In this document: one piece after another, positions 39,001 through 42,000 of the stretch
Numbering within the stretch: the first letter of the stretch is position 1
How the letters are laid out: each line of letters opens with the position of its first letter
Assembly (NCBI RefSeq): GCF_016903815.1
Contig: NZ_CP069974.1
Reading direction: 5' to 3' (one strand)
From: Escherichia coli
GTDB taxonomy: Bacteria; Pseudomonadota; Gammaproteobacteria; Enterobacterales; Enterobacteriaceae
DNA: 64,000 nucleotides
Made by a program: the position numbers

Positions 39001-42000
39001 GACTATCTGACTGAGATACTCGACGGGGTAAGGCGGATCGACGATCAGCTGCTGCACATCTTTCTGACGCTCAACGAGGACCTATTGCGTCACCGGATCG
39101 CGAACCAGACCATGCATCCTGACCCGAATCGAAATGCGGAGATTCGAGAGTGGCGATTAGCGAATGTCGCCCGATGCTTGGCCGCAAGGGAACGGCTTCC
39201 ATGCACAACCCGTGTTCTCGATAGTGGTGCACACACCAGCGATGAACTCGCAGCGATGGTGCTCGACGGAATCGATGGGCGCACCTGATCGCCTTCGACG
39301 CCTGCGCAAAGCGTAGCGCGAGGGTGGCGGGCTCACGACCAAACGCCCAGAGGTCGATCATCGCAGGGATGTTTGGCTTTGTGGTGCGGACGACGGGACT
39401 CGAACCCGTACTCTCACAGAGAAGCAGATTTTCGTACCACCTCGACTTTCGCCGCCGTCTGATGACGTTCGTGGTCTGGACTGTCCCTTCGCCATTGCCC
39501 GAAGGCTTTAGGCGCCGCCCGTCCAGTCTCTACACCTTCCCCCGAAGGGGCTTGGCTCGGGATTGGCTTAGGGTATTGCCCGTTAGCGTTCCCCGACTTT
39601 GAGCGGTTCTACTCCGCGGATTTCCCCGCGGGCACTCCAATTTTAAAGTCTGCTGCGTCTACCGATTTCGCCACGTCCGCCTTTTTTCGCCGTTCCTAGC
39701 GCTCGTGCGATGCACCTATGTTGCACCTAGCGCCGAATCGTTCTTCGTCATCCTGAAAAACCACGTCTCCTAAAGCCTTGCATAGCTTATCTTTTCTCCA
39801 CCACGAACTTTTTTGTGGGATGGTAGAAAAAAAGACTTTTTAAGTCCGCTGGCTTGCCAGGCCTTGTTAGCTTGTACGGTCATGGTTATCGGGTAAAGAA
39901 TATTGACGGCATCGCTGGTGTCGGTGGCTGAAAAGCCGGCTCCCATCAGGGCAATAGCCATTTCAGATGCAGGCGTACAGGGCAATGGTCAACAGCTACA
40001 GCCTGTCTGACGATTCCGGCGTCATGGCTGCGGCGGCTATCACGCATTTTTTGTTCGGTCAGGCGGTGTTTTCGTACCTCAATGGTTGGAGCGTGTTGAT
40101 CGGACCTGGTACAGGTTTGGACAGCACGGGCTGCAAATACGCAAGGGATTTAATGGGCCTGGTGGCGTTCACGGCTTTTATCGTGACGTTTCTGTTCAGG
40201 GGCTACTCATAATCTCGTGGCTCGGCGGTTCCCGGCACACCATGACAGTAAGGAAGGACCCTGTGTCTCAACTCTCCCAGCTTCGAAGCCCCGCCGCCGT
40301 GCAGGCTGCCATCGATGAGTTCGTGCAACTGGGCCGCACGAAATTCCTGGCGCGCCACGGCTACGGCAAGTCCCGCGACTTCCTGGTACGTGATCCGAAG
40401 ACCGGCACCGATTGCGATTCCAAGGCCATCGCCGGTGTGGCCTTCGGCAAGCAATTTCCCGAGCAGGGCCCGCTCACTGCTGACAGCTTCTCCGGTGGCG
40501 AGGCGACCGTCGTTCCGGCGCTGACGCGGCTCGGGTTTCGCATCATTCGCATCGGCGAAGACTGGTCCGAAGAAGAGGTCCTGGCCACGGTCGAAGACTA
40601 TTTCGACATGCTGCGTGCCGAGGCGGCTGGGGAGCCGTACAACAAGTCCGAGCACAACCAGGCACTGCGCCAACTGCTGAACGGTCGCAGCAAGTCTTCA
40701 GTCGAGCTCAAGCACCAGAACATTAGCGCCGTACTCGATGCCCTGGGCCTGCCCTATATCAACGGCTACAAGCCACGCGGCAACAGCCAACTGCTGCTGC
40801 GTAAATCCGTACACGCCTACGTTCTGGAACATCAGCAGACGGTCGGCGCTCTTGTCGATGCCCTGGAGGAGGTAAAACTTCCGGGTGACAAAACCTACCG
40901 AGCGGCTTTGGTAGAACCACCCGCCCGTGAAGTGCTTGTGCGTACCCCGGCATCTCTACGGCAACGCCTACCGCGAAAGTTCGATTATGCCGCTCGCGAT
41001 GAAGCCAACCGCAAGCTGGGCCGGGCAGGGGAGCAGTGGGTGATTGGCTACGAACAGCAACGCCTGACCGAGCTCGGCCACCCAGAGCTTTTTCAGCGGC
41101 TGGATTGGGTGTCCGACACCCAGGGAGACGGTGCGGGGTTCGACATCCTGTCGTTCGAAGAGGACGCCCATGAGCGCTTCATCGAGGTGAAAACCACCAA
41201 TGGCGGGGTAGGCTCGTCTTTCTTGGTCAGCCACAACGAACTCGAATTCTCCAAGGAGGCGGGCGATCAATTCCATCTGTATCGCGTGTTCCAGTTTCGG
41301 GACGGTCCGCGCCTGTTCACGCTACCCGGCGACCTCAGCCAACATGTGCATCTCAAGCCGACGGGCACTGTTGCAAATAGTCGGTGGTGATAAACTTATC
41401 ATCCCCTTTTGCTGATGGAGCTGCACATGAACCCATTCAAAGGCCGGCATTTTCAGCGTGACATCATTCTGTGGGCCGTACGCTGGTACTGCAAATACGG
41501 CATCAGTTACCGTGAGCTGCAGGAGATGCTGGCTGAACGCGGAGTGAATGTCGATCACTCCACGATTTACCGCTGGGTTCAGCGTTATGCGCCTGAAATG
41601 GAAAAACGGCTGCGCTGGTACTGGCGTAACCCTTCCGATCTTTGCCCGTGGCACATGGATGAAACCTACGTGAAGGTCAATGGCCGCTGGGCGTATCTGT
41701 ACCGGGCCGTCGACAGCCGGGGCCGCACTGTCGATTTTTATCTCTCCTCCCGTCGTAACAGCAAAGCTGCATACCGGTTTCTGGGTAAAATCCTCAACAA
41801 CGTGAAGAAGTGGCAGATCCCACGATTCATCAACACGGATAAAGCGCCCGCCTATGGTCGCGCGCTTGCTCTGCTCAAACGCGAAGGCCGGTGCCCGTCT
41901 GACGTTGAACACCGACAGATTAAGTACCGGAACAACGTGATTGAATGCGATCATGGCAAACTGAAACGGATAATCAACGCCACGCTGGGATTTAAATCCA

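Follow-up and report, generated by a model that had tools for sequence, protein, structure and literature searches.

We analysed a 64,000-nucleotide (nt) stretch of the Escherichia coli contig NZ_CP069974.1, hereafter the window, which carries an aac(3)-II gentamicin-resistance module, and focused on the DNA downstream of the module's tmrB-like gene. RefSeq/PGAP places no annotation between this gene and the next hypothetical open reading frame (ORF). At 39382–39680 on the minus strand, two transfer RNA (tRNA) segments flank 213 nt of intervening sequence:

39646–39680, minus strand: 5′ exon, 35 nt, with the acceptor 5′ strand (39674–39680), D arm, anticodon-stem 5′ strand and C32-U33-U34
39433–39645, minus strand: group I intron, 213 nt, without ORF, assigned from a match to Rfam RF00028, a helix model and covariation
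39382–39432, minus strand: 3′ exon, 51 nt, with anticodon A35-A36, anticodon-stem 3′ strand, variable arm (39411–39421), T arm (39393–39409), acceptor 3′ strand (39386–39392), A73 and CCA (39382–39384)

Together these segments very probably constitute a complete, intact tRNA-Leu(UAA) gene split by a group I intron, captured from an alphaproteobacterium and now carried as an unannotated passenger of the aac(3)-II module. This reading draws on sequence homology, on a structure model and on analogy with the intron family, from which self-splicing is predicted.

Exon structure of the tRNA-Leu(UAA) gene

The 3′ exon reads AAAAUCUGC-UUCUCUGUGAGAGU-ACGGGUUCGAGUCCCGU-CGUCCGC-A-CCA, comprising in turn the anticodon-stem 3′ strand, the long variable arm, the T arm (ACGGG-UUCGAGU-CCCGU), the acceptor 3′ strand, A73 and an encoded CCA. 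A first-pass annotation of this DNA had recognized a tRNA 3′ part with T arm, acceptor strand and CCA at 39382–39430; this part is real and extends to 39432. The annotation had also stated that no complementary 5′ acceptor strand exists upstream, which does not hold. GCGGACG at 39674–39680 is the exact complement of CGTCCGC at 39386–39392, and it opens a normal tRNA 5′ half at 39646–39680 (GCGGACGUGGCGAAAUCGGUAGACGCAGCAGACUU, minus strand). This half was missed because the 213-nt intron separates it from the other, and a real feature was misread as a fragment. The last base of the 5′ exon supplies the U of the splice-site U·G wobble, and the exon is the same or almost the same in 27 alphaproteobacterial relatives.

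Removal of 39433–39645 in silico yields an 86-nt RNA that ARAGORN calls as tRNA-Leu(taa); its acceptor, D and T stems have 7, 3 and 5 bp, its variable arm is long and its CCA is encoded. The features of a type II tRNA-Leu are all present, namely the cloverleaf, the long variable arm, the UAA anticodon, A73 and the 3′ CCA. Splicing joins CUU to AAAA; because the 5′ exon ends in C-U-U and the 3′ exon starts with A-A-A-A, the intron lies between anticodon positions 34 and 35. The 26-nt T-arm/acceptor string and the 5′-half string each occur once in the window and in none of 100 shuffles.

The ARAGORN check proposed in the first-pass annotation gave a divided outcome. Run by default over the 64-kb window, the program reports no tRNA and no transfer-messenger RNA (tmRNA); its intron mode returns the correct gene boundaries with the intron misplaced, and the spliced sequence is called as described above. 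We ascribe the default miss to the limitations of the tool with group I introns and do not take it as evidence of absence.

Structure and covariation of the intron

The Rfam family RF00028 (Intron_gpI) matches 39463–39655 on the minus strand across the full length of the model (positions 1–253; E=2.1e-7, 36.8 bits). We built a structure model by hand from homology, comprising P1–P9 and the four tRNA arms with 87 pairs, including the P3/P7 pseudoknot. All 87 pairs are canonical in the window. The intron elements, all on the minus strand and, from P2 to P9b, placed by the homology model, are as follows:

39648–39644/39639–39635: P1, with pairs C33-G, U34-A, U35·G, U·G and A-U
39631–39625/39620–39614: P2
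39606–39601/39520–39515: P3, in pseudoknot with P7
39596–39591/39562–39557: P4
39587–39585/39568–39566: P5
39581–39579/39573–39571: P5a
39556–39554/39536–39534: P6
39550–39547/39542–39539: P6a, with a UUCG loop
39528–39524/39483–39479: P7, in pseudoknot with P3
39514–39511/39493–39490: P8
39506–39504/39499–39497: P8a, with a UUCG loop
39475–39471/39440–39436: P9
39467–39464/39459–39456: P9a
39454–39451/39446–39443: P9b, with a GAAA loop
39433: terminal G (omega-G), G248 of the alignment, invariant in 28/28 sequences

Three defining properties of group I introns are found here: the conserved catalytic core, with its P3–P8 and P4–P6 domains and the P3/P7 pseudoknot; a P1 helix in which the end of the 5′ exon pairs with an internal guide sequence and whose cleavage site lies at a U·G wobble; and a terminal guanosine directly ahead of the 3′ exon. 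U35 and its wobble partner G44 are, like omega-G, invariant in all 28 aligned sequences, and the pair next to U35·G44 covaries (UG, CG, AU, GU). The 6-bp anticodon stem that pairs the two exons is canonical in the window and conserved in the relatives.

Covariation was assessed in an alignment of 28 sequences. Standard pairs occupy 97.1% of the paired cells, compared with 93.3% in shuffles and 34–46% when partners are slid. Pairs changed on both sides number 23, against 10.2 in shuffles (0 of 500 reach 23) and 5–12 with slid partners, and the covariation score is 0.158, against 0.085 and at most 0.051, respectively. Compensatory changes fall in P2, P5a, P6a, P8, P8a, P9a and the T arm. P3, P4 and P7 are invariant and paired in 28/28 sequences, which is consistent with the model and uninformative on covariation. 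The minimum free energy fold of the 299-nt precursor, a calculation that cannot represent the P3/P7 pseudoknot, has z = -1.3 and is uninformative.

The window departs from the near-invariant columns of the alignment at a single unpaired base, 39441. Compared with its four nearest relatives it has 12 private differences, 0/12 of which disrupt a helix; P9a carries a private compensatory switch from C-G to U-A (39465/39458), and P5 a private conversion of U·G to U-A. This pattern suggests that the RNA was under structural selection until its capture and is not a decaying fragment.

Relatives in alphaproteobacterial chromosomes

We scanned species-representative genomes with the 21-nt core string of J6/7-P7-J7/3, GAAGGUGYAGAGACUGGACGG, which gave at least 120 loci. 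Among the matches listed, 27 or 28 align with the window over both exons and the intron. These full-length relatives belong to Rhizobiales (Paramesorhizobium, Mesorhizobium, Jiella), Rhodobacterales, Sphingomonadales, Acetobacteraceae and Rhodospirillales; the closest among them, at 93–95% identity, are chromosomal tRNA-Leu(UAA) genes, mainly of Rhizobiales. Their chromosomal positions are syntenic within each order. When the 120 listed loci were each spliced in silico by brute force and scored with ARAGORN, the procedure proved far too permissive, yielding many spurious anticodons, and was dropped; junctions were read directly.

The same core is found in other introns as well. Among the matches listed, at least about 48 loci are tRNA-Arg(CCU) introns of the Agrobacterium type, inserted at 36/37, in Rhizobium, Bartonella, Acetobacteraceae and Azospirillum, and at least about 17 are in tRNA-Leu(UAA) of Eremiobacterota (L013, L017, L027 and others). 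Actinobacteria carry it in tRNA-Lys(UUU) at 34/35, in Microbacterium, Nesterenkonia and Tsukamurella (loci L005, L007, L014, L020, L031, L054, L056, L088, L100, L103, L104 and L119), and two Rhodobacterales, Haematobacter and a metagenome-assembled genome, carry it in tRNA-Arg(UCU) (L032, L051). The tRNA-Lys(UUU), eremiobacterotal tRNA-Leu(UAA) and tRNA-Arg(UCU) hosts go beyond the host tRNAs and phyla named in older reviews.

Mosaic ancestry of the aac(3)-II module

The tRNA gene lies among blocks with different nearest relatives:

37839–39298, plus strand: aac(3)-II and tmrB-like block, with aac(3)-II at 37849–38733 and the tmrB-like kinase/ATPase gene at 38746–39288
39299–39381, no strand: orphan spacer between the aac(3)-II–tmrB and tRNA blocks, which holds the junction of two ancestries
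39681–39847, minus strand: upstream spacer of the tRNA gene, about 167 nt, conserved in alignments with the relatives
40244–41364, plus strand: DUF3883 (ScoMcrA_N + NOV_C) gene block, cut by IS26, with its nearest relatives in Stutzerimonas and Pseudomonas

The tRNA block with its upstream spacer (39382–39847) is 86–90% identical to loci L139, L076, L143 and L141, and its best whole-block relative is the metagenomic contig L139 at 89.9%. A second metagenome scan gave 13 relatives, the best 89.9% identical over the module; a metagenome scan with a 34-mer bearing the window's private P9a bases returned 0 matches and no exact donor. From this homology, the tRNA gene and about 167 nt of native upstream DNA appear to have been captured from an alphaproteobacterium, most like Rhizobiales/Phyllobacteriaceae, into a pCTX-M3-type module.

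The upstream spacer presumably holds the native promoter and leader; within 39681–39847 we found no sigma-70 consensus and no match to an Rfam family. A tandem direct repeat, TAGGTGCA-N3-TAGGTGCA (39711–39729, minus strand), lies 30–50 nt upstream of the tRNA start and is kept in most relatives with a window-type spacer, for example L076, L042, L139 and L143. It has no sigma-70 match and may be a promoter or a regulator-binding element. At the far end of the spacer stands a hairpin, GGACUUAAAAAGUC, followed by a U-run (39827–39847).

The nearest non-enteric relatives of TmrB and AAC(3)-II are found in a Sinorhizobium-like chromosome. The segment 37839–39286 has 86.3% DNA identity to three metagenomic contigs of 120–176 kb (L123–L125, 5092–6541; related loci L127–L128), with protein identities of 87% for AAC(3) and 88% for TmrB. 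The genes around the pair on these contigs (Metal_resist, sigma-70, EF-hand, BA14K) lie in synteny with the chromosome of Sinorhizobium meliloti, in which tmrB is present and aac(3) absent. By homology, the Rhizobiaceae (Sinorhizobium-like) are a candidate donor lineage of aac(3)-II.

No intron-containing tRNA, and no tRNA adjoining aac(3)-tmrB, was found on the Sinorhizobium-like contigs. Variant enterobacterial aac(3)-II modules, 96.4% identical to the window block, share only 37839–39298 or 37847–39243 with the window, continue into IS3- or IS91-family elements and are without the tRNA; the left homology boundary at 37839 is common to all variants. An ancestral linkage of tmrB and the tRNA was considered and rejected, since both the contigs and the variant modules are without the tRNA. 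Homology to the contigs ends at 39286 and to the variant modules at 39298, and the alphaproteobacterial tRNA loci start at 39382; no relatives of 39299–39381 or 39848–40243 were found outside the module.

The suggestion of the first-pass annotation that the tRNA marks the origin of the aac(3)-II/tmrB segment can be kept only in part. The gene with its 167 nt of upstream DNA is 86–95% identical to alphaproteobacterial chromosomal tRNA-Leu(UAA) loci and in this sense records an origin. Because an orphan spacer lies between the two blocks and their nearest relatives are not the same, the tRNA alone does not mark the origin of aac(3)-II/tmrB. It is one discrete alphaproteobacterial piece of a mosaic module; no chromosome was found with it next to tmrB. 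tRNA genes and introns serve well as phylogenetic markers, and this one points to Rhizobiales-like Alphaproteobacteria, the same broad group as the aac(3)-tmrB relative, which narrows the search for the aac(3)-II donor.

At the other end of the module, relatives of the DUF3883 gene with 84–89% amino acid identity (L131, 5002–7768; L002, 4476–7260) are placed after a gene for a 1729-aa DEAD/UvrD helicase. Stutzerimonas GCA_032109055.1 has a contiguous junction of DUF3883 with an IS1182-like (ISCfr1-like) element, the same as in pCTX-M3. Given these relatives and the shared junction, the ISCfr1 end of the module looks pseudomonad-derived. IS26 (41409–42131) truncates the DUF3883 gene in the window, which is 98.4% identical to the pCTX-M3 version over 433 aa; this truncation indicates that the ISCfr1 end was lost here by an IS26 event. 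The same IS26 also adjoins a truncated traI relaxase/helicase ORF (42165–44918). Directly upstream of aac(3)-II, where pCTX-M3 has IS26, the window has two adjacent truncated IS10-type (IS4 family) transposase ORFs of 288 and 322 aa with identical N-terminal sequences (35792–37730, minus strand). This pair suggests a local rearrangement or duplication particular to this plasmid.

Spread on plasmids and gap in annotation

The segment 39289–39960 is 100% identical in 1,327 PLSDB plasmids from more than 15 genera, including pCTX-M3; hosts are Escherichia, Klebsiella, Salmonella, Acinetobacter, Enterobacter, Shigella, Citrobacter, Aeromonas, Pseudomonas and others. It is also present in 655 of 5,426 complete E. 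coli genomes (~12%), with 86 chromosomal places. To our knowledge, Enterobacteriaceae have essentially no known group I introns apart from those of phages. Some plasmids bear truncated copies of the tRNA (H81, H82, H44), and a search for a closer source among alphaproteobacterial plasmids gave weak matches only.

A search with the spliced tRNA matched only genomes bearing this module, each time as two pieces that together span 299 nt, and each time with "features: none"; the tRNA-Leu genes of E. coli itself are too divergent for a blastn match with it. The antimicrobial resistance literature lists the module by its ORFs only, as aacC2-tmrB-orf192-orf228-orf1182-ISCfr1 (PMC7096625), and we found no mention of a tRNA or intron in this module in the searchable literature. 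A complete, putatively ribozyme-containing tRNA gene lies unannotated within one of the most sequenced resistance modules, which is disseminated globally; the gene belongs to a clade that tRNA finders and the Rfam threshold both miss. A 2014 review found little evidence of bacterial group I introns moving horizontally between species (PMC3984707). Here, a tRNA intron has travelled with its host gene into at least 15 gammaproteobacterial genera. The gene offers a natural test of whether an intron-containing tRNA is expressed and tolerated in a foreign host.

Truncated tRNA halves upstream of the relatives

In at least 10 alphaproteobacterial relatives, a truncated tRNA-Leu 5′ half precedes the module; these loci include L076 (Paramesorhizobium deserti, about 1588–1627), L139, L143, L141, L145, L138, L102 and L061 (Allosphingosinicella). 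The anticodon-stem bases of the halves are genome-specific; each half is followed first by a conserved spacer of about 155 nt and next by the complete gene. DNA upstream of the halves is unrelated, with conservation from AAAAAGTC onward, and a conserved imperfect palindrome, GGTAG..GACTT-AAAA-AGTC..CTACC, stands after the truncated half. In the corresponding region of the window (39827–39880, minus strand) the spacer is kept and non-tRNA DNA stands in place of the half, the upstream homology ending at 39847, within about 6 nt of the junction. Upstream flanks are syntenic within orders; downstream flanks are not, except in one near-identical pair. Among Sphingomonadales with the same upstream neighbour, L117 has a complete gene, and L102 and L061 have a partial half followed by the full gene. 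In the 6–9 kb downstream of the relatives we found no shared DNA, displaced 3′ half, recombinase or integrase.

This arrangement suggests a recombination hotspot at the anticodon-loop-like sequence GACTTAAAA, and the truncated-half junction may be a hotspot resembling an attachment (att) site. A modified form of the att-like idea receives weak support, in that the module of the relatives follows a truncated tRNA-Leu 5′ half and the window breakpoint at 39847 falls at the same junction. In one further locus, L148, the genes found upstream in L076 and L138 lie downstream of the tRNA, which may reflect an inversion.

Proposed splicing mechanism

The gene is intact and structured, its helices covary, and it is homologous to chromosomal alphaproteobacterial genes. 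By analogy with the family, the intron is predicted to splice itself. A precursor would be transcribed from the minus strand, and its intron would fold into the P1–P9 core with the 6-bp anticodon stem keeping the two exons together. Free guanosine would attack after tRNA U34 (39646), held in the U·G wobble with intron G9 in P1, and the terminal G of the intron (39433) would then take the G-binding site in P7. The freed 5′ exon would attack after this terminal G, ligating CUU to AAAA and restoring the anticodon loop C-U-U-A-A-A-A. Processing by RNase P and trimming of the 3′ end would finally give the 86-nt type II tRNA with A73 and its encoded CCA.

Several observations weigh against the overall reading. 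The intron, at 36.8 bits, falls short of the Rfam gathering threshold of 50 bits. That threshold is a curation convention and not a biological criterion, and the chromosomal relatives also lie under it (31.8–38 bits), so the shortfall reflects the Rfam model and not decay. With relatives at only 32–38 bits, annotation pipelines miss the whole alphaproteobacterial clade. On inspection, the P10 pairing is weak, as it is in Anabaena, and exon alignment therefore probably relies on the anticodon stem; exons must pair in that stem in Anabaena, to judge by a title cited in PMC3984707 (Zaug et al. 1993). A consensus scan around the gene found no sigma-70 promoter and no intrinsic terminator, which leaves expression in E. 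coli unsupported. Finally, that the plasmid copies are 100% identical is a sign of recent spread and carries no information on selection in their new hosts.

We further considered, tentatively, that Enterobacteriaceae and other clinical hosts transcribe the tRNA gene and that its intron splices itself there, and that the module of about 470 nt is perhaps a discrete recombining unit targeting anticodon-loop-like GACTTAAAA sites; taken together, this is possible but on balance doubtful. If true, conjugative resistance plasmids would be moving a natural non-phage group I ribozyme from genus to genus, and a bacterial tRNA intron would have spread horizontally on a large scale along with the gene that hosts it. 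A recombining unit would also account for the breakpoint at 39847 and for the truncated halves of resident tRNAs in Alphaproteobacteria.

Alternative explanations

The first-pass annotation had read the tRNA 3′ part as a possible att-site scar, which here would be the attL or attR left by an integrative element that brought in aac(3)-II/tmrB. Integration commonly occurs at tRNA 3′ ends, the CCA end (39382) is where homology to alphaproteobacterial chromosomes stops, and the hotspot-like lack of downstream synteny extends to all lineages but the one near-identical pair. However, the relatives diverge from each other past the CCA too, so that the break there is the end of a conserved gene. The tRNA gene is complete rather than truncated, its 3′ and 5′ segments are each single-copy in the 64 kb, the module contains no integrase, and aac(3)-tmrB stands in a Sinorhizobium-like chromosome with no tRNA beside it, all of which makes a scar highly improbable; in its original form the reading is refuted by the 5′ half. 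A different use of the same junction would make the module of about 470 nt, from the GGACUUAAAAAGUC hairpin to the CCA, a mobile or recombining unit that inserts at GACTTAAAA, interrupts the resident tRNA-Leu and supplies an intron-containing replacement, the window copy having been acquired in this way. The genome-specific halves with conservation from AAAAAGTC, the comparison of L117 with L102 and L061, and the end of the window's upstream homology beside the junction, preceded by non-tRNA DNA, would fit such a unit, as would the presence of window-type modules at 93–95% identity in three orders. Yet tRNA conservation allows this identity across orders without transfer, the 6–9 kb downstream offer no recombinase, displaced 3′ half or shared DNA, and the partial half of L061 is followed by a different spacer. 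Tandem duplication with decay, or whole-locus homologous replacement, could yield similar patterns; to judge by the title of Rudi et al. (2002), cited in PMC3984707, replacement of the whole locus by homologous recombination has been proposed for cyanobacteria. We regard acquisition as a mobile unit as unlikely.

Retention for a benefit to the host, as an extra tRNA-Leu(UAA) for UUA/UUG codons or through a role of the excised intron RNA, seems to us very unlikely. The gene is intact, its A73 and type II architecture are features that LeuRS generally needs, and the module has had extreme success. E. coli already possesses a tRNA-Leu(UAA) of its own, however, and other successful aac(3)-II modules do without the tRNA; moreover, truncated copies occur on some plasmids, no promoter was detected, and the identity of the copies reflects recent spread rather than selection. 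As for a chance resemblance to a tRNA or tmRNA with no gene behind it, one could cite the empty default ARAGORN run and an Rfam tmRNA match with E=0.021. That match covers the 17-nt T arm only and scores 12.2 bits against a cut-off of 47; ARAGORN reports no tmRNA, and tmRNA identity was rejected. With 0 matches in shuffles and all the evidence for an intron-split gene against it, chance has a negligible probability.

Comparison with known tRNA introns

The small introns of the anticodon loop form a family that includes those of cyanobacterial and plastid tRNA-Leu, Agrobacterium tRNA-Arg and Azoarcus tRNA-Ile. Vepritskiy et al. are reported to have described a gamma-proteobacterial tRNA-Leu intron in 2002. 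The family is already known, and the window holds a further member in an unexpected and very widespread setting. tRNA group I introns have been listed for cyanobacteria and a few alpha- and beta-proteobacteria (PMC4033280). A 2025 survey counts more tRNA group I introns in Pseudomonadota than in any other phylum, chiefly at 34/35 and 36/37; 34/35 is the classic tRNA-Leu(UAA) site, and the Anabaena homologue splices in vitro (10.1101/2025.07.03.662931). The 34/35 tRNA-Leu(UAA) introns of Pseudomonadota in that survey and our 27 chromosomal relatives almost certainly form one population; the survey contains zero mentions of plasmids and does not describe the copy in the aac(3)-II module.

The tRNA-Arg(CCU) introns have the 21-nt core string in common with the window intron and differ from it in host tRNA, in insertion site (36/37 versus 34/35) and in P1 and P2. 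The Azoarcus core presumably departs from this string by one base in P7. The Agrobacterium tRNA-Arg(CCU) and Azoarcus tRNA-Ile(CAU) introns (Reinhold-Hurek and Shub 1992, as cited in PMC4033280) are similar to the window intron in size and architecture.

The tRNA-Leu(UAA) intron of Anabaena and other cyanobacteria agrees with the window intron in host gene and in insertion between U34 and A35, in the U·G wobble at the 5′ splice site and the terminal G, in exons that pair within the anticodon stem, and in its small size without an endonuclease ORF. We take the J3/4-P4, P6 and J6/7-P7 core to be recognisably like that of Anabaena, a likeness that serves as a lead and not as a test. The Anabaena intron is about 249 nt long, compared with 213 nt here. 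In contrast to the cyanobacterial introns, the window intron comes from an alphaproteobacterial lineage, is GC-rich (~60%), has short UUCG-looped P6a and P8a helices and a split P9a/P9b, and resides on conjugative resistance plasmids in foreign hosts.

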